64,000 bases of DNA from positions 114,198 to 178,197 of IMG/VR virus record IMGVR_UViG_3300028392_001993. One strand, given 5' to 3'. Each line of letters opens with the position of its first letter. Position 1 is the first letter of the stretch. Position numbers and translations under genes: made by a program. The stretch is from a virus. The notes under the pieces are model-generated. The model was not told where the DNA came from and did no database searches. It was given only the letters and a program-made list of their open reading frames with translations. Shown piece after piece: positions 3,001 to 42,835 of this stretch.

Positions 3001-6000
3001 TACACTTCAATACCGTTGGCATCTAGTCTATAACGTTGATTGTAAAGGAACTGATTATAGTCAGTATCAAATTTATATAAATCTCGATCAGCAAACAGCG
3101 CAAAGAACTTGGCAGGACGAGTCACTGCCAATACATGCATTACCGAGAATGGATATCCACTAGAGTTCCACCAAGATGCTTCAACTGGGCCACCGTCGCC
3201 AATTGCCCAACTCTTTTGGTATCTAGAACTGATGTTTTGATTTAATGGTACGCCTCCCACAACACTATCTCGTGGGCTCAATAGTTCACCTTCACCTCCT
3301 GTGGGAATAACCGAAGTTAAGCCAGGTCTTGAGTATTTGGGTTTGTAGTAAGGTGCAACCGGATCAGCCACAAGACCAGCTTCTAGGTCATCCCACAACA
3401 CCAAGTTGTCAGCGGTATATGGAGCTGGACCATAACGGCCGACCCACCATGAGGGTTCAACTTCTAATCCCAACATTTCCCAAGGTGAGTAACTGGGTTG
3501 TTGCGTGTCGTAAAAGTAGCGATAGATACCGCGCCAGGCGCCTAGTAAATTTTGCTTATTGAGTTTGTTGGTATCACTGGTATAGTTCCATGTAAATTCA
3601 TTGGTGGCACTAAACACTTGTTCGTTATAGTTTAACTTGTTCCATCCGCAATAACTCAATAGATCTGTGCCAAAAATAGTATTGATTTCTTCAAAGGTAT
3701 ATCCAGTGTCACGGAACTGTCCAGGTAACACATCTTCCACAGTGAGTGGTACAGGATTGCCATCTTGTTTGATGTTGCTGTAAATTCTAGTTTCAAATTC
3801 TAACAACACCTGATCACGAATGTCACCAAACACCGGAGTTTCACTACCGTCGTGGCCGATGATAAATTCACCTGTACCGTTTGAGGTTACCAAGGTTGTG
3901 ATTTCTGGTTGCCATTTTGGATATAACCCCATTTTACTAGGCGTATTAGGTACAAAACTTCCGTAGGTGGCGTTGTATTCGTTGATAATAACAGTATCGC
4001 CAATAGCAAGTGTAGCCGATATTGTCAAACGTGGACCGTCTACCGCCACAACATAATCTTTGTCTCTTGTTAAAATATCATTGTTTAGATATACACAAAG
4101 ACCAAGATAGTTAGATGATGTGTAGTTGTACACCTGTACAGTATCAAATGTGGCCCGAGTTGTTAGGCCCACAGTATAGGTATTACTATAAGTTGTAACA
4201 CCTTGGGGAATCATATCGCCCCAATAGAATGGTTGGGTATCTAATTTTCCTAAAGTGATATCTTGTATGGCCTGATCAAGAATACTAGAGGTAGTTTTAA
4301 GCGCAATGTTATTTTGAATCAACACAGCATCCAGCATCTGTGCTTTGAACTTGATATATTCGCGACTGTTGTATTGTAATGATTCAAATATGTTGTAACT
4401 AGGACTACGCATAAAGTAGCCGGCCAAAGTTAACGGGCTACTTTGTTGTAGAATTTCTAATCCGTAAGGAATGATGTTGCCAAGGTCTCTGCTGTTGTTT
4501 GATCCGTTGATTGGTCCAGTTAAGGTCAATAGATTTTCACAGATACTTTCATAGTGTGTGCGTATGGTGCCCAATGTAAATGCAGGACTGTTTGAATTGA
4601 AAGGATTGCTTTGTAAGTTGTTGGGTACTTGATAAAATCCCACATTGCTGGTTTGGTCGCTTAATGCCAATACTTCAATAACATCTGTGGGTAGATATAT
4701 ATCAGTTAATGTAATAACTGTGTTATCTGTTCCCACAGTATAAGTGTACATACTTGGTTCAATAAACACACTACCAACATAAACTTTTATTACAGGAAAT
4801 GCAATCGATGATTGTGCTAATACTGGAACATCAAGTTTAAGAGTTTGCCCTGTATAGGTAAACTTAAATTGTTGATAAATTTGCTGTGTTACAGCCGCAG
4901 TTTGCCAACCAATCAGTTTATGATATGTTACTCGATCTTCGTACTCTCTAGCGGCACCAGAACTGATAGGATAGGTAGTACTTACATTGTCAATAGTATA
5001 AGTGAACGTGTCAACATACAAGTTATTGTCAAACAAAATATCACCAACGTTGTTGATGTTTAGATATTGTAAGGGGAATTGCAATACAGGATCAAGAATG
5101 GTTGTGTCGCCCACAGCATAACTGAATAATTTTGATCCTGTAAAGTCACTTGATTGGTATTTGACTTTGTTGCCAAAGCTCACACCTTCCGTGTCATACA
5201 CATTGTACAAAGGTGCCTGTTGAACTGCAGTCTTTTGTTGTGCCTGGATCCAAGCAGTTCCATCGTACCAAAATGTTTTTCCAGCAATGGTTTCACCGTT
5301 CAAACAAACAGTAGATTCATCTAGCTGTACTGCACCGTCTGCGGCTTCGGTCAACACGATAATTGGCTGTGATATAAGTGGCGGTATAGTATCTGGGGTT
5401 GCAAAACTTACCACATAAATTTTATCACGCACACTGAGATCAGTGTCCGCGGCAAATATAACTCGCGACCCTTCAACCAATGTGTAACCATTGGTGGTGT
5501 AACTGGTGGTGCCTTCTACGTTTGAAAACGCATCAGTTTCTGCAAAGTCAATGATATCCACTGGTGCTTTGCCTTTGGTACCCATATTCCATAAACGAAT
5601 ACCTGGACGGAACTGTATGATTGGCCGCTTGGCTCTAAAATTATTGTCTAGGTCGGCGACTGTGTTGTTGTATTTGGCTGTGGCATTGATTACATCAATG
5701 TGGAACCAGCGGTTACTTCTTGTCCAGGCATTTAAGTCTCGGCTGGCACGACTAATGGTCAAGTAATCTATATCCCCTGGTTCTACTGCAATTGTGCTGT
5801 CATTGTAATCTGAAGCATAACTTTCGTAGACTGCAAAGTCTTCAACTGGCAATAGATCAATTGCTGAGCCAACACCACTCACATAGTATTCGTGATCGCT
5901 AATGGCAATTGAATTCATTGTGCCTGTGCCGTTTAACAACGTTACCGCTGGGCCATTAGGCACTGCACTTACTGTAAACTTGATTCCACTGGCCGCAATT

Positions 6001-20602: not shown

Positions 20603-21499
20603 ATGACTTTACTACCCAAAACGGCACCACGTGTCAACTATCTCAACAACAGAGATATCTTAAAAGAAATTCACCTTAGCAAAAACAACTACTGCTGGTT
20701 CCAAGACAGAGCAACGGATCACCAGTTTGATATTATTTTGCCGTCAATAGACAAGATCAATCAGCGCACTGTTGCAGAAGCCCGACGCAACCGAGCAGAT
20801 CGGCTCAAGCGAGAAGGTACCATTGTAGACCCTAAAAAAATACCCAATACAGACATTGTGTTCCGTATCACGTGTTGGGATCACATACCCATGGCGCCCA
20901 AAAAAATAACCAAGGCCGAAGCCAAACGTCGTAAACTGGAAGACATTTTGGACCTGGACGATGCCACAGAAGAGGATCCCTTGGCAGATATTGTGGATGC
21001 ACCCGTACTGGACTTGAACCATGTGCGTGTGAACTTTCCTCCGTTTGAACACTATCGCATAGACGAAGAAAAGAAGCCGTTTATTGTGGGGCGATCGCAC
21101 TGGAAAGGTGACCTGGCCACTGGAGAGTTTTCCAAAGATCACGGTAACATGACCAAAAAACTGGCCATGATGTTTATGAAATTATGCGAAAGATATGCTA
21201 CAAGGAGTAACTGGCGTGGATACACCTACAACGAAGAAATGCGGGGACAAGCCCTGTTACAACTCAGTCAAATCGGACTCCAGTTCGATGAATCAAAATC
21301 GCAGAACCCTTTTGCGTATTATACTGCCGCTATCACTAATAGTTTCACTCGTATCCTAAACATTGAGAAAAAGAATCAAAACATCCGTGATGACATTTTG
21401 GAAATGAACGGACTCAATCCGTCATGGACTCGCCAGAACTCAGGCAAACACAGCATGGCTGCCATGTCCGGACCGGTTGTGTCTAGCCTTGATGAGTAG
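20603..21499 (+). CDS. gp55: Phage late-transcription sigma factor, T4 gp55-like (298 aa)
   Basis: NYLNNRDILKEI N-terminus and YATRSNWRGYTYNEEMRGQALLQL...FDESKSQNPFAYYT..ITNSFTRILNIEKK match gp55-type region 2; adjacent to gp47/gp46 as in T4-like phages. Confidence 0.75.
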   Translation: MTLLPKTAPRVNYLNNRDILKEIHLSKNNYCWFQDRATDHQFDIILPSIDKINQRTVAEARRNRADRLKREGTIVDPKKIPNTDIVFRITCWDHIPMAPKKITKAEAKRRKLEDILDLDDATEEDPLADIVDAPVLDLNHVRVNFPPFEHYRIDEEKKPFIVGRSHWKGDLATGEFSKDHGNMTKKLAMMFMKLCERYATRSNWRGYTYNEEMRGQALLQLSQIGLQFDESKSQNPFAYYTAAITNSFTRILNIEKKNQNIRDDILEMNGLNPSWTRQNSGKHSMAAMSGPVVSSLDE

Positions 21500-21505
21500 T
21501 ATAAT
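21477..21505 (+). promoter_or_regulatory. Sigma70-type promoter for the gp47 operon, probably giving a leaderless mRNA
   Basis: TTGTGT (21477-82), 17 nt, TATAAT (21500-05), then 6 nt to ATG 21512 with no SD. Confidence 0.5.
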
Positions 21506-21511
21506 AGCGGG

Positions 21512-22528
21512 ATGACTAACCTATTTCGTAAAGCCGCGGTGTTCACAGACATCCACTTTGGCCTGAAAAGCAACAGCACTCAACACAATGAGGACTGCCT
21601 AAATTTTGTAAAGTGGGCAACCGCTAAAGCAAAGGCCGAAGGCTGTGAGACCTGTTTGTTCCTGGGCGATTGGCACAACAACCGTGCCAGCCTTAACATT
21701 GTTACCTTAAACTACAGCCTACGTGCATTGGAGCACATGAATGACAACTTTGACAGCGTGTACTTTATTCCTGGTAATCATGATCTTTACTATCGAGATA
21801 AGAGAGATATTCAAAGCGTTGAATGGGCAAAACATTTACCTAACGTCCATATTTGCAACGATTGGTTTAGCAGTGGCGACGTGGTTATCGCTCCTTGGTT
21901 GTGTGGTGATGACCACAAGCGTATTCCCAAACTAAAAGGCCGGTACATGTTTGGACACTTTGAACTGCCCGGATACCTGATGAATGCCATGGTAGAGATG
22001 CCAGACCACGGCGAAGTACGCAGAGAAGATTTCACGAACTTTGAACACGTTTTCACCGGACACTTTCACAAACGTCAGACCAAGAAAAATATCACCTACA
22101 TTGGCAATTGCTTTCCACACAACTATGCTGATGCTGGCGACGACGATCGCGGCTTGACCATCATTGAGTGGGGGCAGGATCCTGTGTATCATGCTTGGCC
22201 CGATCAACCACGTTATCGTGTGTTGGGTCTGGCCAACATCATTGACAACGCACCTAGTTTGCTTGCTACAGGTATGCATGTGCGGGTACAGTTAGACATC
22301 GAAATTAGTTACGAAGAGGCCAATTATATTAAAGAAACTTATATCAAAGAATACAGCCTTAGAGAAATGGCCTTGATACCCAACAAAAATAGTTCAGTAG
22401 ATACCGACATGGCCCCCGGTGAAGTCAAGTTTGAGTCAGTTGACCAAATTGTCACAGACCAAATTACTAATATTGAAAGTGAATTCTACGACAACAAATT
22501 GCTGTTGAAGATTTATCAAACTTTATGA
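21512..22528 (+). CDS. gp47: Recombination endonuclease subunit, gp47/SbcD/Mre11-like (338 aa)
   Basis: Metallophosphoesterase motifs FTDIHFG, FLGDWH, IPGNHD, GHFE, TGHFH, YIGN. Confidence 0.9.
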   Translation: MTNLFRKAAVFTDIHFGLKSNSTQHNEDCLNFVKWATAKAKAEGCETCLFLGDWHNNRASLNIVTLNYSLRALEHMNDNFDSVYFIPGNHDLYYRDKRDIQSVEWAKHLPNVHICNDWFSSGDVVIAPWLCGDDHKRIPKLKGRYMFGHFELPGYLMNAMVEMPDHGEVRREDFTNFEHVFTGHFHKRQTKKNITYIGNCFPHNYADAGDDDRGLTIIEWGQDPVYHAWPDQPRYRVLGLANIIDNAPSLLATGMHVRVQLDIEISYEEANYIKETYIKEYSLREMALIPNKNSSVDTDMAPGEVKFESVDQIVTDQITNIESEFYDNKLLLKIYQTL

Positions 22529-23658
22529 CGTCGGAAACATTTTGTGTTAATCCTTGGCTTACTTTACACACAAAATTTACACATGGCTACAGTCCATGCT
22601 GTAGATTTCGAGGTGTAGTGGCCAGCCATGACATACAACAATATGTTCACAGCGATCAACTGATCAAGATCAAACAAGACTTACTTGCAGGTCATGCTGT
22701 GCCAGAATGTTCAGATTGTTGGAATCATGAAGCCCGGGGCTATGTTAGCAAACGTCAGCGAGACAATCAGACCTACAAACAAATTTTTCAAGCCTTGTAC
22801 AAAGATCCGCATACACCCGTGGATCGATTTGTTGAATACTATGTGCGACTGGGCAATCATTGTAATCTGCGATGTACCAGTTGTGATGACACCCTAAGCT
22901 CGGGCTGGATCAGCGAAAACAAAAAATTCAATATATCAACCAAATCAGTTGAAATACTAGATGACGATCACGAAGTGTGGAATCATATGAGATCACATGC
23001 TGCCACCATTGGTACAATTGAGTTTGTCGGCGGCGAACCATTTATGATGTGTCAAGATGCACAACGAGACCTATTTAATTTTTTGGTTGACACTGGACAT
23101 GCATCGCACATCCGAATCAAATATAATACCAATGGCACACGACTGCCTACCGAGCAGTTGGAATACTGGAGCAGATTCAAAGCAGTAGAAATCAATGTGA
23201 GTGCAGACGGTGTAGGCAAACGATTTGAATATTTGCGGTATCCTGCTGAGTGGTCTGCTGTTGAGCAAAATATTGAATTTTATAAAAATCTTCAAAAGAC
23301 TTCGATTCCACAATTGGAGCTTACCATAATGCATACTATCAGTATCCTAAATATTGGATATGTGCAAGAAATGTTGGATTACTGCAATCAACACAATCTC
23401 AAAATTTTCATAAACATGCTGGAGTATCCTGAAGTTTTAAATATGTTTGCTGTGACCGATGATATCAAGCAGTGGATCCTGAGTAGAATCAAATCTGTTG
23501 ATCACCCAGTGATTGCAAGCATGAGCAAAAACTTGCAGTTGGGGTCTGTGACAGGATCCGACATCATGAATTTCTTGTTGCCGTTGGATCAGCGTAGAAA
23601 TCTAAGTGCAGAAAAAACTTTTCCTGAATTGATTGAATGCTTAAAGTCAGTGACATAA
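22525..23658 (+). CDS. Radical SAM protein with N-terminal Cys-rich (twitch/SPASM-like) segment (377 aa)
   Basis: CNLRCTSC (CX3CX2C), GGEPF, YNTNGT, SADG; N-terminal FCVNPW...SPCC...CSDCW. Confidence 0.85.
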   Translation: MTSETFCVNPWLTLHTKFTHGYSPCCRFRGVVASHDIQQYVHSDQLIKIKQDLLAGHAVPECSDCWNHEARGYVSKRQRDNQTYKQIFQALYKDPHTPVDRFVEYYVRLGNHCNLRCTSCDDTLSSGWISENKKFNISTKSVEILDDDHEVWNHMRSHAATIGTIEFVGGEPFMMCQDAQRDLFNFLVDTGHASHIRIKYNTNGTRLPTEQLEYWSRFKAVEINVSADGVGKRFEYLRYPAEWSAVEQNIEFYKNLQKTSIPQLELTIMHTISILNIGYVQEMLDYCNQHNLKIFINMLEYPEVLNMFAVTDDIKQWILSRIKSVDHPVIASMSKNLQLGSVTGSDIMNFLLPLDQRRNLSAEKTFPELIECLKSVT

Positions 23659-24614
23659 CAACCATTGATATTGAAACTATTAACAATTGCAATGCTCGGT
23701 GTCCATTGTGCTTGCGTGGTTCTGGCATGCGTACCAATGACTCTTTGAACTGGGATCAAGTGGTGGCAAACACGTCATTGAATTTTTGGCACAACCTCAA
23801 AGTCATAAACTTCAACGGTACCACTGGCGACAATATCATGCATGCCAACATTGAGCGCATTGTGCAATGGTGTGCCGAAAACACCACGGCCGACATAAAC
23901 ATTCACACCAATGGATCTTTACGCAGTACGGATTGGTGGCAACAGTTTGGTTCCATGCTAGAGTCTTGCCCACACAAAGTCGTATTTGGCATTGATGGAC
24001 TAGAAGACACCCATTCCATCTATCGCATGGGCACTGACTACGCCAAAGTTATAGCAAATGCACAGGCGTTTATGGCAGGCGGTGGCAGAGCCGAGTGGCA
24101 ATTTATTGTGTTTGAGCACAATGCACATCAGATCGACGCGGCCAGACAACTGGCTGATCAACTAGGATTTGCTAGATTCTTTGTGTTGTATCAAGATCGT
24201 TTTGATGAATCGGCAGACATTCCTGTCAAACGGTACAACAAAGGTCTAGAAAAAATCAACGCCGAAATTGTTTCTAATCCTTCGTCCAACAGTATCACTC
24301 GACGCATTGCCGATTCCGATCGCAAGATCACTTGTAGAAGTCAACAGATTGGCTGGTTGTCAATCTATGCAGACGGTACTGTGTGGCCCTGTTGTTGGCT
24401 CATGGGCTGGCACCGTGCTCAGCATCAGGCACAGGCCGCCTTGGTAAATTATCACTTTAAGAAGATATTGAATATAGACTTTGATCAAATTTCCCTGTAC
24501 AATTGCACACTAGAGAGTATTGTAAACAGCGATCTTTGGCAAAAAAGATATCCAAATAGTTTTGAACACAACCCAAATGCTATTTGTTTACAGCAATGCT
24601 CAGGTAAAAAATGA
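23637..24614 (+). CDS. Radical SAM/twitch-SPASM protein (325 aa)
   Basis: CNARCPLC, HTNGSLR, FGIDGL, WQFIVFEHN; C-terminal IYADGTVWPCCW...C.QQC. Confidence 0.85.
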   Translation: MLKVSDITTIDIETINNCNARCPLCLRGSGMRTNDSLNWDQVVANTSLNFWHNLKVINFNGTTGDNIMHANIERIVQWCAENTTADINIHTNGSLRSTDWWQQFGSMLESCPHKVVFGIDGLEDTHSIYRMGTDYAKVIANAQAFMAGGGRAEWQFIVFEHNAHQIDAARQLADQLGFARFFVLYQDRFDESADIPVKRYNKGLEKINAEIVSNPSSNSITRRIADSDRKITCRSQQIGWLSIYADGTVWPCCWLMGWHRAQHQAQAALVNYHFKKILNIDFDQISLYNCTLESIVNSDLWQKRYPNSFEHNPNAICLQQCSGKK

Positions 24615-26374
24615 TACACATTAAAAACTTAACTGTTAAAAACTTTATGAGTGTAGGCGCGGCTACCCAAGGCATTGACTTTGACCGCAACGACCTTACA
24701 CTGGTGTTAGGTGAAAACTTAGACTTAGGTGGAGACGGATCACGTAACGGTACAGGCAAGACCACAATCATCAATGCACTGAGTTATGCATTGTATGGAC
24801 AAGCACTTTCAAACATACGCAAAGATAACCTAGTAAACAAAACCAACGGAAAGAATATGCTGGTTAGTTTAGACTTTACAGTCAACGGACAAGAATACAG
24901 AATCGAACGTGGTCGCAAGCCTAATGTGCTCAAGTTCTATGTTAACAACGAGCACAAGGCCGCCGAAGATGAAGCACAAGGCGATTCAAGAGAAACACAG
25001 GATGCTATCGAGCATGTGATGAATATGAGCCACGACATGTTCAAACATGTGTTGGCATTAAACACTTACACCGAGCCGTTCCTGAGCTTGAAGGCCAACG
25101 ATCAACGCACTATCATTGAACAATTGTTGGGCATTACATTATTGAGTGAACGTGCTGACGCGATCAAAGAACTCAATCGTCTGACCAAAGATGCTATTCA
25201 AGCGGAAGAATTTCGTATACGTGCTGTACAAGAAGCCAACAAACGTATTGAAGAACAGATTGAAAGTCTGCGTAAACGTCAACGTCTTTGGATTGCCAAA
25301 CGTGACGAAGATGTGGGCAAACTAGAACAAGCCATTGGTGACTTGGAGCACATTGACATTGATGCTGAAGTACAAGCACACAGGAACCTAGAAGAATTCC
25401 ATGTCAAGAAAAAAGCCTTAGACGAAGCCAATCGGTATATTCGTCAAATTGACACAGATGATACCAAACTAACAAAACTGTTGAGCAAACTCAAGACAGA
25501 AATTGAAGCACTGGATGCTCACAAGTGTCACAGTTGCGGGCAGGACTTGCATGATGACAAACAGGATGAGTTAAAACAGGCCAAACAGGCTCTAGTGCAA
25601 GAAACAGCACTACAACTCTTGGCCAACAATACTCAACGTACAGAACACGAAGATACCATCGCCACAATTGGCTTGTTGGGTACAGCACCCTCTGTGTTTT
25701 ATGATTCATTAGAACAAGCACTTAACCACCGTAACACAGTAGAAACCTTACGAAAAGATCTAGCCACACGATCTGCGGATGCGGATCCTTACGGAGAGCA
25801 AATAATAGACATGCAAGGACAGGCGTTACAGGTTGTAACATATGATGCTCTAAACGAACTCACCAGAGTACAGGATCATCAAGACTTCTTGCTCAAACTA
25901 CTCACAAGCAAAGATAGTTTTGTACGTAAAAAGATTATTGATCAAAACTTGAGTTATTTGAATGCAAGACTCACACACTACTTGGATCGTATTGGATTGC
26001 CACATACTGTGAAGTTCCAAAACGACTTAACAGTTAGCATTGAAGAATTGGGTCGTGAACTAGACTTTGATAACTTATCGCGTGGTGAACGCAACCGATT
26101 GATTCTATCAATGAGCTGGGCATTCCGTGATGTGTGGGAAAGTTTATACTCACCTATCAACTTGTTGTTTATTGACGAGTTGATTGACAACGGTCTAGAC
26201 ACGCAAGGCGTAGAGAATGCATTAGCATTGCTCAAGAAGATGAGTAGAGAACGCCACAAGAGTATTTGGCTAGTAAGTCATAGAGACGAACTAGCAGGAC
26301 GAGTAGAAAATATTCTCAAGGTAATCAAAGAGAACGGGTTTACAAGTTACAACACGGATGTTGATCTTGCGTGA
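24611..26374 (+). CDS. gp46: Recombination ATPase subunit, gp46/SbcC/Rad50-like (587 aa)
   Basis: Walker A NGTGKT, coiled coil with zinc-hook CHSC, signature LSRGE, Walker B LLFIDE, H-loop VSHR. Confidence 0.92.
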   Translation: MIHIKNLTVKNFMSVGAATQGIDFDRNDLTLVLGENLDLGGDGSRNGTGKTTIINALSYALYGQALSNIRKDNLVNKTNGKNMLVSLDFTVNGQEYRIERGRKPNVLKFYVNNEHKAAEDEAQGDSRETQDAIEHVMNMSHDMFKHVLALNTYTEPFLSLKANDQRTIIEQLLGITLLSERADAIKELNRLTKDAIQAEEFRIRAVQEANKRIEEQIESLRKRQRLWIAKRDEDVGKLEQAIGDLEHIDIDAEVQAHRNLEEFHVKKKALDEANRYIRQIDTDDTKLTKLLSKLKTEIEALDAHKCHSCGQDLHDDKQDELKQAKQALVQETALQLLANNTQRTEHEDTIATIGLLGTAPSVFYDSLEQALNHRNTVETLRKDLATRSADADPYGEQIIDMQGQALQVVTYDALNELTRVQDHQDFLLKLLTSKDSFVRKKIIDQNLSYLNARLTHYLDRIGLPHTVKFQNDLTVSIEELGRELDFDNLSRGERNRLILSMSWAFRDVWESLYSPINLLFIDELIDNGLDTQGVENALALLKKMSRERHKSIWLVSHRDELAGRVENILKVIKENGFTSYNTDVDLA

Positions 26375-27212
26375 TATAAAAGTAATACACTTAGAACCCA
26401 CAGACGTGTGTCAGGCTGCCTGTGCGTTGTGTGCGAGAGAAGTTGATCCGAGCTTTAGAAAAGATCGTCAGCATCATCTATCATTAGGACAAATACTAAA
26501 AGTGTTTGATGAAGAAAAAATCAAACAACTGGATAAAATGTTCATGTGCGGCAACTATGGAGATCCAGCTGCCGGTAAAAACACACTAGATATTTTTCAA
26601 GAATTTAGACGTATTAATCCCAATATTGTATTAGGCATGAATACCAACGGTGCTATACAAACTACATTCTGGTGGTACGAATTAGCAAAAATACTAAATC
26701 AACCACAAGACTATGTGGTGTTCTCGATTGATGGACTGGAGTACACCAACGCCACTTATCGTCGAAATGTAAACTGGGCCAAGCTCATGGCAAATGCTCG
26801 TGCATTTATCGATGCTGGCGGTTCAGCACACTGGGATATGCTGGTATATCGACATAATCAACACGAAGTTGATGCGTGTGAACAGCATGCTAGAGATTTG
26901 GGATTCTCTTGGTTTAGAGCCAAAGTTTCAAAACGTGGATTTACTGAATCGTTGCAATTTCCTATTGGATGGCAACCAATAGCTGTTGACTCTAGTGTTA
27001 TAAATTGTCATGCATTGAGAGAACAAAGTGTTTATATAGATGCACAAGGTCATCTTGGACCTTGTTGTTGGCTAGGAGCACGACAACAAAATTTTGTTAC
27101 AGATGCTGATGCTATACCTACTCAGGATCCAGTATGCGCTATCACTTGCGGATCGACTGCCGCAGGCACAGCGTTTGATCAGCAGTGGCAAAGAGAAGTA
27201 GCATTATGTTAG
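26358..27212 (+). CDS. Radical SAM/twitch-SPASM protein (284 aa)
   Basis: CQAACALC, MCGNYGDP, MNTNG, FSIDGL; IDAQGHLGPCCW...CAITC. Confidence 0.85.
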   Translation: MLILRDIKVIHLEPTDVCQAACALCAREVDPSFRKDRQHHLSLGQILKVFDEEKIKQLDKMFMCGNYGDPAAGKNTLDIFQEFRRINPNIVLGMNTNGAIQTTFWWYELAKILNQPQDYVVFSIDGLEYTNATYRRNVNWAKLMANARAFIDAGGSAHWDMLVYRHNQHEVDACEQHARDLGFSWFRAKVSKRGFTESLQFPIGWQPIAVDSSVINCHALREQSVYIDAQGHLGPCCWLGARQQNFVTDADAIPTQDPVCAITCGSTAAGTAFDQQWQREVALC

Positions 27213-28213
27213 CCAACTGGCATTTCCATATTGAAGTATCCAGTAAGTGTACCTTGCGGTGCCCTCGTTGTGCTAGACAAGAAGTTCCCAACGGCCTTGT
27301 GAATACCGAACTAGATTTAGAATTTTTTAAACGTAACTTTACTCCAGAATTTGTTTTGGCAAATGTAGAAAAAATTACGTTCTGTGGTGACGACGGTGAT
27401 CCTATTTATGCACACGACTTGATCCCAATAATTAGCTATCTTAAAAGTATAAAATCTATTGAGATTGTTATTGTCACAAACGGCAGTCACAAAAAACCCG
27501 AGTGGTGGATAGACTTAGGTTTTGTATTAGATGCTAAAGATACTGTACACTTTAGTATAGATGGGTGGGACAATGCCAGCAATAATCAGTATCGAGTGAA
27601 TAGTGACTTTGACAGCATAGTACAAGGTATATCTGCATTACGCAAAGCCAGTACTTGCCAACTAGTATGGGCCGCAATTGCATTTCAATTCAATGAAGAT
27701 CAAATTGATTACATGCGAGATTTTGCTGTGTCAATTGGCATGGATCGATTTCAACTGACTAAGAGTACAAAGTTTGGCAGTATCTATTCTAGTTATGGAG
27801 TAAACGATCCACTAGAACCCAGTGTAAAATTTGTCAGCAGTAGTCATAGATTTGAGCGAGACGTTGTTGAGCTAACCGATCGGTTGACAACTCCTGTACA
27901 CAGTAAAAATATCGAATTATACAATCAAACAAAAAGTCGTAACGGTGTTACTCCGTTATGCGAAATAGGCAACAAAGGTTTGTACATTGATGCTCGCGGC
28001 AGGTTATTTCCTTGCTGTTGGGTGGCCAATAGATACAATCACAATTCACAATGGCAACAACTGGCAGAAAACTTCGATTTACATACAAAAACTTTAACAA
28101 ACGTACTGGCAGATCCTTTTTGGAACAACGAATTTCAAGCGTTTAAATGGCAGGAATGCCAGACAAAATGCTCAAGTTCACAGGTAGACAGAAATTACGC
28201 AACTTCTTGGTGA
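27206..28213 (+). CDS. Radical SAM/twitch-SPASM protein (~335 aa; ATG 27206 preferred over GTG 27185)
   Basis: CTLRCPRC, FCGDDGDP, VTNGS, FSIDG; IDARGRLFPCCW...CQTKC. Confidence 0.85.
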   Translation: MLANWHFHIEVSSKCTLRCPRCARQEVPNGLVNTELDLEFFKRNFTPEFVLANVEKITFCGDDGDPIYAHDLIPIISYLKSIKSIEIVIVTNGSHKKPEWWIDLGFVLDAKDTVHFSIDGWDNASNNQYRVNSDFDSIVQGISALRKASTCQLVWAAIAFQFNEDQIDYMRDFAVSIGMDRFQLTKSTKFGSIYSSYGVNDPLEPSVKFVSSSHRFERDVVELTDRLTTPVHSKNIELYNQTKSRNGVTPLCEIGNKGLYIDARGRLFPCCWVANRYNHNSQWQQLAENFDLHTKTLTNVLADPFWNNEFQAFKWQECQTKCSSSQVDRNYATSW

Positions 28214-28253: not shown

Positions 28254-28682
28254 ATGACATGGCTATATCAAGATACCCCAATTGAGACGTTGCCAGAAGA
28301 ATGTGTTGGATTTGTTTACTTGATCACAAACAATCTCACTGGACGCAAGTACATAGGCAAAAAATTAGCAAAATTTAGCAAAACCACATACAAGACTGTA
28401 AAACAAAAAAACGGCATTAAAAAGCGGAAGAAGATACGCTCCAAGATCGATAGTGATTGGAGAGAGTACTATGGGTCAAGCCCAGAATTAACCGCAGATG
28501 TAATCAAACTAGGCACCAAAAACTTCACCAGAGAAATACTTTACTATTGCAACTCCAAGTCAGAATGTTCATACATTGAGGCTAGAGAACAATTCAGTAG
28601 GCGAGTATTAGAGTCACGAGATTATTACAACGGCCATATTCAAGTTAGAGTACATGGCTCACACATCATAAACAAAATTTAA
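28254..28682 (+). CDS. Short GIY-YIG family endonuclease (Seg-like, 142 aa) with a Lys/Arg-rich insert
   Basis: GFVYLITN...GRKYIGKK motif, WREYYGSS, FTREIL...E; no C-terminal DNA-binding extension. Confidence 0.75.
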   Translation: MTWLYQDTPIETLPEECVGFVYLITNNLTGRKYIGKKLAKFSKTTYKTVKQKNGIKKRKKIRSKIDSDWREYYGSSPELTADVIKLGTKNFTREILYYCNSKSECSYIEAREQFSRRVLESRDYYNGHIQVRVHGSHIINKI

Positions 28683-29140
28683 CAGGCAGCGATCACGACA
28701 ACGTGCTGAGTGTATTGGCTCAGCCCCATTGAGGATATGTGAGATACCATATTTAGACTTGGGCGTCAAAGGCAATTGCTAACTTAAGGCAACAAATGGT
28801 TTGGGCTCTGTGAAACAGATACACCCCTTGCTCGTAGAACTTGGATCTAATATCGGGTTACTAGGGTTCCGTTGATATGTGAAGCTTGAGTAGGGGGTAC
28901 CGGTCAACCGCCTCCGTTGTGCTTTTAAAAAAAGATAATTTCGCAAGAAGTTGTACTTTTAAAAAGTATAAATCTCATTACTATTAGATGACTGTGCTAC
29001 TCAGATGATGCTCTCTCATTTTCACCGTGCGTACGGTGAATTATGACCAATTAATCTAGATGATACTTAATTCAAGTAACTTAAAAAAACAATCAGTTGT
29101 TGAGCGATAGCGAAAACAACAGACTTACGTAGTAAGTCTT
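28683..29140 (+). ncRNA. Candidate large structured non-coding RNA (family unassigned; strand inferred from GNRA loops and gene context)
   Basis: ORF-free ~470 nt in a gene-dense genome, with many hairpins and long-range complementary segments (see findings). Confidence 0.55.
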
Positions 29141-29154
29141 TTAAACATTCTAAC

Positions 29155-29215
29155 TAAATATAGGTGTAGTTCGCGGAATTGGCGTTCCCAACTACTCTAA
29201 CATTAAATAGGAATG
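29155..29215 (+). promoter_or_regulatory. Late promoter TAAATA, 5' hairpin and RBS of the homing endonuclease gene
   Basis: TAAATA 29155-60; stem GTAGTT(29166-71)/AACTAC(29190-95) with inner GGAA/TTCC; AGGA ~8 nt before ATG 29221. Confidence 0.5.
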
Positions 29216-29220
29216 TCAGC

Positions 29221-29811
29221 ATGAATATTTACAATAAAAAGAATCCTCCTGGTGGCTTTTACGTATATGCCTATCTACGAGATGATGGAACTCCCTATTA
29301 CATTGGCAAAGGTAAGGGAGTACGAGCATGGAAACAACATTCTATCAAGGGTAAAGGTGCTCATACTCCTAAAGATAATTCTCGTATTTTTGTTTGTGAA
29401 ACGAATCTCACCGAAGTTGGTGCTTTTGCTCTTGAACGTAGATATATTCGTTGGTATGGACGAAAAGATTTAGTAACAGGTATTTTGGTTAATCTGACAG
29501 ACGGAGGAGAAGGTACTAATAATACTCAAAGAAATATTACTGAAGAAACAAAACGTAAAATTGGGCAAGCCAACAAAGGGCGTATCCAGTCTGCTGAAAC
29601 AAAACTAAAACGTAGTCAATCGTTAGCAGGACGTAAACCTTCAGAGGAATCAAATGCAAAACGTCGAGCAAAAGCAATTGGTAGAGTGTTAGGCCCTCAC
29701 GATGCAGAAAGACGTGCTAAAAATAGCGAGGCAGTTCGTCAGTGGTGGGCTAACCGTAAATTAGAATTGGTCAGGCCAGTCACGCCAGAGTGCGTGTTGA
29801 ATGTTGCCTGA
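29221..29811 (+). mobile_element. Free-standing GIY-YIG homing endonuclease with NUMOD3-like repeats (~196 aa; ATG 29221 preferred over TTG 29179)
   Basis: FYVYAYLRDDGTPYYIGKG...R; ERRYIRWYGRK...LVNLTDGGEG; ITEETKRKIGQANKG, QSAETKLKRSQSLAG, PSEESNAKR repeats. Confidence 0.8.
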
Positions 29812-30093
29812 AACAAATTGATTAAAACTTTTGTGTTTGACTTCAAGATCACCTTCAAGTGGTGCAACTCGCTTGAATGCTGAATCCATTTGAGCCATGT
29901 CTCGAAACTCCATAATAATGAGCCATTCAGGCATGTCGGCTATGCTACGGAATCCCATCTTGCAACGTGTGATTCTGTAGGATTCCATTTTGCCTTCTGA
30001 AATCAAGTGATCAAAGAAACTTTTCATACCGTTGACCCAGTCCAAGTCTGAGATGTCGCCTTCTTTGTCTGCCCAAATTGTATATAAATCCAT
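29761..30093 (-). CDS. Small dimeric alpha/beta-barrel-like protein (DUF6614-like, 110 aa)
   Basis: MDLYTIWAD...FFDHLISEGKMESYRITRCKMG...PEWLIIMEFRDMAQMDSAF; family recalled, needs an HMM check. Confidence 0.55.
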   Translation of the reverse strand: MDLYTIWADKEGDISDLDWVNGMKSFFDHLISEGKMESYRITRCKMGFRSIADMPEWLIIMEFRDMAQMDSAFKRVAPLEGDLEVKHKSFNQFVSGNIQHALWRDWPDQF

Positions 30094-41910: not shown

Positions 41911-41980
41911 CTTGTCAACACAATACGGTGTTTTATGCAGGTTTCCCCTGCGTAGTGCCTAGAACGCACATCGGGCTTCT
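41911..41980 (+). promoter_or_regulatory. Structured 5' leader with three hairpins between late promoter and RBS
   Basis: AACAC/GTGTT (41917-32), ATGCAGG/CCTGCGT (41935-53), GTGC/GCAC (41955-69); TAAATA 41905-10 upstream, AAGGAG downstream. Confidence 0.45.
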
Positions 41981-41995
41981 ATAAGGAGAAATCAA

Positions 41996-42835
41996 ATGGG
42001 AAGAGCTCTTAAAATTCAAAAAACAAACATTGGCGCCGGCACCAGTGTATCTGGATCTAATCCAGTAGTTACCTCATACAATCAAAACGTCTTGACAGAC
42101 GCTGGTTACCCAAACTTTGGATCATTAACTGATCCAGTTTATAACTCGCCAGTTCAAACATTGGATAGCACACAGTATCTAGGCGTAGTTGGTGGCTCAC
42201 CTACTACCAGTACCGCAAGTGCAACCAATCCAGAAATTGCCGCATTGGTTAACATCTTGCTGGCAGATGGCACAAACACCTATTCAGTAGCCAGCAGTTA
42301 CACCGGTCGTATTATCCGCCAAAAAGGTTCACACAAGTTCCTGGTTGCCTACACAGGCGCAACTACAGCACTCAGTGTAGGTCTCATTGTCGGACAAGCA
42401 TATCAAATTGTGTCATTGGGAAACAGTGATTGGTCCACAGTATTAAGCGGCACAGCCGCAGTGGGCAGAGTATTCACTGCATTGTCGGTAGGTGCTGGTA
42501 CTGGTACAGTATATCCAGTGGGACAATGTGTGTTGTCAAACACAGCCACTCCTTCGGCAGGCAACATGAGTATCTCTTATTCAGTAGGCGACTCAAGTGC
42601 TGTGTACGCCAGTTATATTACCAACAAGTGGGTACGTGACTGGAACGGCATGACTTATGGCAACTACAGTAACAGTAACCTTGGTACAAACACTCAATCT
42701 GCTGAAAACTTCTACCCTGTGAACTTCTTTACAGACGAAGGAACGGTCACATGGTCTGGTGCTGAAGTTATCAACAGTTCACAATCACAAAACGGTTCAT
42801 TGCAATTGGCACAAGTGGACAGCGTTACAAGTTAA
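41996..42835 (+). CDS. Hypothetical virion structural protein (279 aa)
   Basis: MGRALKIQK start; IIRQKGSHKFLV; late promoter and strong RBS; followed by a terminator. Confidence 0.6.
   Translation: MGRALKIQKTNIGAGTSVSGSNPVVTSYNQNVLTDAGYPNFGSLTDPVYNSPVQTLDSTQYLGVVGGSPTTSTASATNPEIAALVNILLADGTNTYSVASSYTGRIIRQKGSHKFLVAYTGATTALSVGLIVGQAYQIVSLGNSDWSTVLSGTAAVGRVFTALSVGAGTGTVYPVGQCVLSNTATPSAGNMSISYSVGDSSAVYASYITNKWVRDWNGMTYGNYSNSNLGTNTQSAENFYPVNFFTDEGTVTWSGAEVINSSQSQNGSLQLAQVDSVTS

Follow-up and report, generated by a model that had tools for sequence, protein, structure and literature searches.

What does a phage encode in the one long stretch of its DNA that holds no open reading frame, and does this have anything to do with the small nuclease whose gene ends immediately before it? 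The locus that raises these questions lies in a 64,000-nt window (i.e., the whole stretch of DNA analysed), itself part of a 178-kb IMG/VR virus record estimated by CheckV to be 51% complete. An initial annotation, made by eye, described there a large, ornate phage RNA that was not assignable to a class and that might work as the partner of the nuclease. The first of these propositions has stood and the other two are not supported: the locus is a real, unusual structured RNA gene, a sister form of which has already been catalogued in part. Few non-coding RNAs are both large and knotted, and every class solved so far has given new biochemistry.

Among the genes of the record are those for a T4-type late sigma factor, for gp47 and gp46 (SbcD/SbcC-like) and for portal, major head and baseplate proteins, and some of its close relatives are complete genomes, ~346 kb long and bearing terminal repeats; the source is therefore an uncultured T4-like jumbo phage. 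Within it, the RNA forms the 3' end of a rightward gp55-gp47-gp46-radical-SAM-nuclease gene block, and leftward baseplate genes face it from the other side. (At window positions 20603-28213, four radical-SAM genes are interspersed among those for gp47, gp46 and a gp55-like late sigma factor, all in one rightward block, which terminates with the nuclease gene and then the RNA.) Elsewhere in the window, at 41916-41998 (+), lies a 'freshwater-2' RNA (RF02980, 71.6 bits), with a 384-aa gene reading leftward on one side of it and a 279-aa gene reading rightward on the other; the phage thus has a second RNA motif that is catalogued, and this one fits a lake origin.

A structured RNA gene behind the nuclease gene

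With both strands checked, positions 28680-29169 are the window's only stretch of at least 200 nt without an 80-codon open frame, and at these thresholds the description of the locus as the window's only long ORF-free stretch holds. The + strand folds better than its shuffled versions, with a z of -3.0 as compared with -1.5 for the - strand. To characterize the locus comparatively, 80 related IMG/VR loci were collected using the 142-aa nuclease as a handle and 119 further loci through a scan with a 19-nt pattern from the RNA core (15 specified bases). The conservation downstream of related GIY-YIG genes on which the initial annotation had staked its RNA is indeed found: dozens of contigs from related phages keep the region with 70-86% identity, and their alignments display obvious compensatory changes. 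An nhmmer profile locates it in ~180 IMG/VR loci, comprising 134 distinct extended sequences; the carriers are uncultured freshwater T4-like jumbo phages, and the family thus numbers more than 130 distinct sequences. A pattern scan of bacterial and archaeal genomes yielded at least 120 matches, of which those listed were all due to chance as judged by nhmmer.

Of the 85 pairs that RNAalifold predicts, 45 have changed on both sides. Combining this prediction with an unbiased mutual-information scan led to a hand-built model of 93 pairs, including one pseudoknot, which is 96.7% paired across 32 relatives, as compared with 87.3% for shuffles and 33-45% when the partners are slid; among these 32 sequences 49 pairs show compensatory (i.e., both-sided) changes, versus 23 ± 2 for shuffles and 8-14 for slid partners. 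That the RNA is on the + strand follows from its many G-U pairs. Positions 28683-29143 (+) are almost certainly the gene for a stand-alone structured non-coding RNA of ~440 nt, and it is just as nearly certain that this RNA consists of about 16 helices, at least one pseudoknot, a GNRA-capped hairpin and, near its end, a GA-motif hairpin followed by a terminator. The elements of the model are as follows.

28683-29143, + strand: whole RNA gene (twin-box RNA, type A), from the upstream gene's stop codon to the terminator T-run; blastn and nhmmer conservation
28697-28863, + strand: 5' domain (RNAalifold and mutual information), differing from the Polynucleobacter-1 domain of sister RNAs
28697-99/28765-67, + strand: helix P1, 5' domain
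28705-11/28718-24, + strand: helix P2, 5' domain
28725-28/28760-63, + strand: helix P3, 5' domain
28733-39/28748-54, + strand: helix P4, 5' domain, covarying
28776-80/28788-92, + strand: helix P5, 5' domain
28802-05/28825-28 with 28809-10/28822-23, + strand: helix P6, 5' domain
28835-44/28853-63, + strand: helix P7, 5' domain
28864-29066, + strand: 3' domain, common to all subtypes (profile conservation, mutual information, structure model)
28864-69/28881-86, + strand: helix P8, 3' domain
28871-75/28904-08, + strand: pseudoknot GUUGA/UCAAC, 95-100% paired
28887-90/28974-77, + strand: helix P9, 3' domain
28893-98/28910-15, + strand: helix P10, 3' domain
28918-28970, + strand: P11, a long AU-rich hairpin capped by GCAA (alignments, MFE fold)
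28992-94/29002-04, + strand: helix P12, 3' domain
29021-28/29033-40, + strand: helix P13, 3' domain
29096-29120, + strand: T1 hairpin, with a 6-bp covarying stem, a GA/GAA internal loop, GC/GC and a GNNA loop (GAGCGAUAGCGAA)
29121-29143, + strand: T2, an 8-bp covarying hairpin followed by a T-run, terminator-like on both strands

The general picture of a large, ornate, structured phage RNA is thus borne out by conservation and by a consensus structure strongly backed by covariation, whereas the details drawn by eye survive only in part, four of the six helices first proposed having failed the covariation test. An 11-bp helix between 28823-33 and 28888-98 is at some positions paired in merely 16-63% of sequences, and is replaced by three others: its CCCC pairs with upstream 28802-05, its GGGGGT with downstream 28910-15, and TGAG (28887-90) with CTCA (28974-77). 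The CCATT/AATGG helix shows mismatches without compensation, and CCCA at 28725-28 instead pairs with TGGG at 28760-63; 28706-12, assigned to a long-range helix, belongs to a local hairpin with 28718-24; and the supposed pseudoknot TGAGAT/ATCTCA is paired at three of its positions in 48-58% of sequences. The two that remain are the GCAA-capped hairpin at 28918-28970, which exists as a lineage-specific expansion of a short GNRA hairpin (4-5 bp in most relatives), and the hairpin at 29016-46, for which the support concerns the core, TTCACCGT/ACGGTGAA at 29021-29040, a conserved hairpin; in sister types the stem at this position (P13) is made of other complementary sequences, such as GCCC.../...GGGC. 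Similarly, of the repeats noted by eye, YAGATGAY is real, its second and third copies being the twin boxes discussed below, and the first copy of GATATGTGA is not conserved, since it is merely one strand of the covarying helix P4. Within the pseudoknot of the model, the pair 28875/28904 undergoes compensatory changes from AU to UA or CG. The T1 motif occurs once in the 178-kb record; its hairpin, kept by almost every member of the family, might serve as a protein-binding or K-turn-like module.

Kinship with the Polynucleobacter-1 RNAs

A cmscan comparison with Rfam, also suggested by the initial annotation, finds no family for the window RNA at gathering thresholds, nor at E ≤ 10 over positions 28400-29400; in particular, the covariance models for ROOL, GOLLD, HEARO, RNase P, group I and tmRNA give no match at either level, and ARAGORN predicts neither a tRNA nor a tmRNA in the RNA region. 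Nor does the window reach the gathering score (37 bits) of RF01718, the Polynucleobacter-1 model, or match it at E ≤ 10. The RNA is assignable nonetheless: its 3' half is homologous (nhmmer E ~1e-28) to the 3' extension of RNAs that bear the Polynucleobacter-1 motif. In ten such sister loci (type B) RF01718 scores 75-122 bits directly behind the nuclease gene, and the type-A profile matches ~100 nt further downstream with E-values of 1e-20 to 1e-28 (for example, at positions 3676-3861 of locus L048, E 1.4e-28). Hence what Rfam catalogues, a motif of 141 nt, is no more than the 5' domain of a longer RNA, whose 3' domain is, by sequence comparison, homologous to window positions 28864-29066 plus the T1 and T2 hairpins. 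There is little doubt that the window RNA is a 'type A' sister of the Polynucleobacter-1-headed RNAs and that what the two types have in common is confined to the 3' 'twin-box' domain; members more distant than either type also exist.

As defined here, a member of this family possesses a core, GGUAC-N-G-NNN-AACCGCCUC, a pseudoknot, two identical AYYY-N7 boxes spaced 48-59 nt apart, T1 and a terminator. All of these are present in the window RNA, with the core at 28895-28913.

A blastn search of 50,697 cultured-phage records matches neither the window RNA nor a type-B RNA. In the literature searched, the Polynucleobacter-1 motif is named only by Weinberg et al. 2010 (Genome Biol 11:R31, PMC2864571), where it appears in a table alone, as 'Burkholderiales, fresh water/estuary', with no function given. 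The locus is absent from the main text of the phage structured-RNA catalogue of Fremin et al. 2023 (PMC10690425).

Twin boxes and what they may recognise

The 3' domain is an internal duplication in which the series RUGRC, loop, AYYY-N7, hairpin occurs twice over. At the end of each of the two near-identical units, a word of 7-9 nt, here AGAUGAU, comes directly after a tetranucleotide that is constant, being ACUC at 28999 and AUCU at 29054; the resulting boxes, ACUC-N7 and AUCU-N7, lie ~55 nt apart:

28999-29011, + strand: twin box copy 1, ACUC + AGAUGAU + GC, matching copy 2 in nearly every RNA
29054-29066, + strand: twin box copy 2, AUCU + AGAUGAU + AC, changing in concert with copy 1

Within nearly every RNA the two words are the same, and between RNAs they differ; divergent members carry, each twice per RNA, such words as ACGAAAU, AUAGCAG, AUGAAGAG and AGGUAAU. 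In an unbiased alignment of 64 type-A RNAs, columns 29003 and 29058 are both A in 42 and both G in 19 (3 discordant, so that the copies agree in 61 of 64), and columns 29007 and 29062 are both G in 37 and both A in 25 (2 discordant; 62 of 64 agree). These column pairs are among the strongest signals in the alignment, and they have no Watson-Crick character. When changes are counted on a tree inferred from the RNA outside the boxes, both copies change at box position 1 on 12 branches, versus one single-copy change in each, and at box position 5 on 7 branches, versus two single-copy changes in each. Because the columns that vary between the boxes are uncorrelated with them, block recombination does not explain this agreement. 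Two short words that change often, yet change together, constitute an unusual evolutionary signal and offer a handle for a partner search.

The predicted pairing probability of the boxes is only moderately low (0.24-0.48), and a search for an internal partner (8 of 8 Watson-Crick or G-U pairs) finds no consistent site in the RNA; this lack of a complement inside the RNA points to a partner outside it. Within the phage's own 178-kb record there are just trivial antisense sites, with nothing outstanding, and none of its 23 tRNA genes contains a complement. (These genes, predicted by ARAGORN, lie outside the window at positions 39481-62556 of the genome, designated G000, most of them between ~57 and 63 kb; two have a CAT anticodon.) A comparison of four genomes whose boxes read AGATGAT, AGATAAT, GGATAAT and AGATGAA found covarying exact complements at homologous positions for 0 of the 42 sites that have homologues. 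An anti-Shine-Dalgarno element, a tRNA anticodon-loop element and a translational hopping element in the style of gene 60 were also considered and rejected: by eye, the divergent words misfit, and no reading frame enters the boxes.

From these patterns it is possible, though on balance not probable, that the RNA acts in trans and independently of the adjoining nuclease, with the twin 7-9-nt boxes as its specificity element. Both boxes would then recognise one and the same partner sequence, which might take the form of two copies of a site, of a palindromic site or of two copies of one molecule. It would not be part of the RNA and probably not of the phage genome either, being located in host RNA or DNA; selection would hold the two boxes identical while the word drifts between phages. 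Against this proposal stand the failure of the above searches to find a partner, the only moderately low pairing probability of the boxes and the shortness of a 7-mer for specific pairing in trans. Alternatively, the boxes may be kept identical by a symmetric requirement, either structural or for protein binding. A bolder and rather doubtful version treats the boxes as a reprogrammable recognition element, that is, as one 7-9-nt word shown twice by a conserved, knotted scaffold, which would pair with two identical (or palindromic) sites in the nucleic acid of a host or competitor. If true, this would be a new kind of phage-encoded RNA, a guide or sponge that evolves its specificity by changing two copies in coordination.

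The boxes can also be read as serving the RNA itself. On one variant they are cleavage or ligation sites, two equivalent positions that release or circularise a ~55-nt unit containing P13; on another they are symmetric RNA-RNA contacts within an RNA-only multimer like those of ROOL or GOLLD (ROOL, GOLLD and OLE form homo-oligomers according to a bioRxiv preprint, 10.1101/2024.12.08.627333, which counts in favour of self-assembly). The internal duplication of the 3' domain suits either variant, as do the size, the pseudoknot and the GNRA loop, which are typical of ribozymes and ornate RNAs. Even taken together, however, the two variants are unlikely: Rfam contains no ribozyme or ornate-RNA family that matches; sites read by a fixed catalytic core would have no need for their sequence to drift; and antiparallel self-pairing of the boxes works only for words of the AGAUGAU type and fails for the divergent ones.

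A trans-acting RNA also has to be weighed against a cis-acting 3' element, i.e., a structured 3' UTR that terminates, stabilises or processes the gp47-gp46-nuclease mRNA. The arrangement of the locus agrees with this in that the RNA begins at most 14 nt past the upstream stop codon, in that its end carries a terminator at a boundary with convergent genes, and in that no conserved promoter was found upstream, so that the RNA may arise by processing from the 3' part of the operon transcript (the ends given here for the RNA are those predicted from sequence). Such an element is nevertheless quite improbable, for sixteen covarying helices, a pseudoknot and concerted boxes exceed what termination or 3' protection needs, the RNA sequence is kept whichever gene lies upstream, and the T1 motif, being unique in the genome, is no general terminator module.

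The neighbouring nuclease and comparison with known systems

The genes that flank the RNA in the window both encode GIY-YIG proteins:

28254-28682, + strand: gene for the upstream 142-aa GIY-YIG protein (PF19835, E 6e-33)
29221-29811, + strand: downstream insertion, a gene for a 196-aa free-standing GIY-YIG/NUMOD3 homing-endonuclease-like protein

A structural model of the 142-aa protein (pLDDT 92) consists of a GIY-YIG domain with a long basic beta-hairpin (residues 40-66), which corresponds to the 'very basic arm' seen by eye; the accompanying remark that it has no usual DNA-binding tail is likewise correct, there being no NUMOD, IENR or HTH domain. The best structural match of this model is I-TevI (1LN0) with a probability of 0.98, at an E of 0.07 that misses the 0.001 cut-off. 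Identity with T4 endonuclease II (DenA) was rejected, since there is no PDB sequence match, I-TevI is preferred and endonuclease II is absent among the matches listed. Homologues occur in 462 cultured-phage records, and in the present clade the gene has a fixed slot. (The label 'NAD synthetase', which this family bears in PHROGs (phrog_447) and throughout many phage records of GenBank, looks like a propagated misannotation.)

That the RNA scaffolds or guides this nuclease, with the twin boxes as guide-like words, is very improbable. The idea draws on three observations: where a locus has a close GIY-YIG homologue, the two genes are, with few exceptions, adjacent on the same strand; the protein has the basic beta-hairpin arm; and in four of the nine divergent loci tested (L125, L191, L102 and L109) the RNA comes directly after the gene for another small nuclease, PDDEXK_15 (PF24608), which is readable as 'some nuclease plus RNA'. 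Yet GIY-YIG homologues are widespread in phages without the RNA (the four neighbourhoods inspected, in Melnitz, S-SRM01, P-HM2 and C48C1, leave no room for it), and the RNA of divergent phages is found behind the PD-(D/E)XK nuclease, a phosphorylase-like gene or an unassigned gene. Moreover, although the gene order of the clade is nuclease, RNA, convergent genes, unrelated genes of 240-360 aa separate the nuclease gene from the RNA in several phages, and if those that follow the RNA are counted too, such genes occur in many loci. Nor does any GIY-YIG residue covary with the state of the boxes: mutual information reaches at most 0.19-0.32 of ~0.98 bits, and the top protein columns are all hypervariable. 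No IscB/TnpB-like protein was found by the RNA, and the variable guide segment anticipated across homologues was sought without any long one being found. Because the GIY-YIG and PDDEXK_15 genes both follow gp46/gp47, shared synteny suffices to explain why a small nuclease recurs in this slot, without any functional link. No RNA-guided GIY-YIG or PD-(D/E)XK enzyme is known. The link to the nuclease thus comes down to neighbourhood, and a false claim of an 'RNA-guided GIY-YIG' is avoided.

The four PDDEXK_15 genes (L125, 9348-9854; L191, 5043-5549, - strand; L102, 3893-4423, - strand; L109, 8302-8835) come directly after a ~590-aa open frame of gp46 size, and their occupation of the GIY-YIG slot looks like a non-homologous replacement of small nucleases. 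The downstream 196-aa gene of the window is missing from the closest relative (L003), and its 3' end overlaps that of a convergent DUF6614 gene (29761-30093, - strand) by 51 nt. Across loci, a hotspot for variable 240-360-aa genes without a Pfam family lies on either side of the RNA (among others, L007, 3440-4453; L039, 536-1606; L008, 3820-4914, - strand; L013, 3842-4873, - strand). Pfam identifies no family in the genes inserted beside the RNA in other loci, except for one phosphorylase-like protein, and a homing-endonuclease nature of these inserts was rejected for want of Pfam support; only the window's own insertion can therefore be called endonuclease-like.

That the locus is not an RNA at all, and is instead a decayed gene or a DNA-level element (e.g., iterons or a homing-endonuclease target), is barely credible: variable genes, including the window's homing-endonuclease-like gene, do insert on either side and the twin boxes are direct DNA repeats, but the compensatory and G-U-preserving changes are specific to the + strand, the longest open frame (median 60 codons in 63 relatives) is not conserved, indels are not multiples of three, and as a sole explanation this is refuted by covariation. 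Least credible of all is a template for a reverse transcriptase, with the boxes as template-jump repeats like those of DRT2 or telomerase RNAs; identical short repeats do flank a ~50-nt segment, but five phage records, three of them 95-100% complete, contain no RVT_1 (PF00078), and with no reverse transcriptase encoded a template-jump role is unlikely.

How, then, does the locus compare with known systems? The 142-aa protein shares its GIY-YIG domain with the Seg proteins and I-TevI (PF19835 being the GIY-YIG domain of SegE). Unlike the homing endonucleases of T4-like phages, it is syntenic and has no DNA-binding tail; neither the DNA-binding domain nor the sporadic distribution characteristic of GIY-YIG homing endonucleases was found for it. 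Its synteny and conservation across 462 records mean that it is not a sporadic mobile gene, and only the downstream 196-aa gene behaves as an insertion.

OMEGA/HEARO systems likewise place a structured RNA beside a nuclease gene, but their RuvC/HNH IscB/TnpB protein, transposon ends, long variable guide and Rfam match are all missing here, and the pairing of RNA and nuclease gene, unlike theirs, is not obligatory. The ROOL, GOLLD, OLE and raiA RNAs are, like the twin-box RNA, long, multi-helix, pseudoknotted and often associated with phages or prophages, but have no sequence or structure match to it; ROOL and GOLLD are larger than its ~440 nt, and no RNA of these four classes is known to carry concerted twin boxes.

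With Polynucleobacter-1, on the other hand, the twin-box RNA shares both a genomic slot (behind a small nuclease gene, facing gp26-like baseplate genes, within the same freshwater T4-like clade) and, in the sisters that bear RF01718, a 3' domain with the pseudoknot core GGUAC...AACCGCCUC, the twin boxes, T1 and T2. Rfam models no more than the 141-nt 5' domain, in place of which the window RNA has a different, non-matching one. In other words, what has been catalogued so far of an RNA that is abundant in giant freshwater phages is a 141-nt piece of its sister form.
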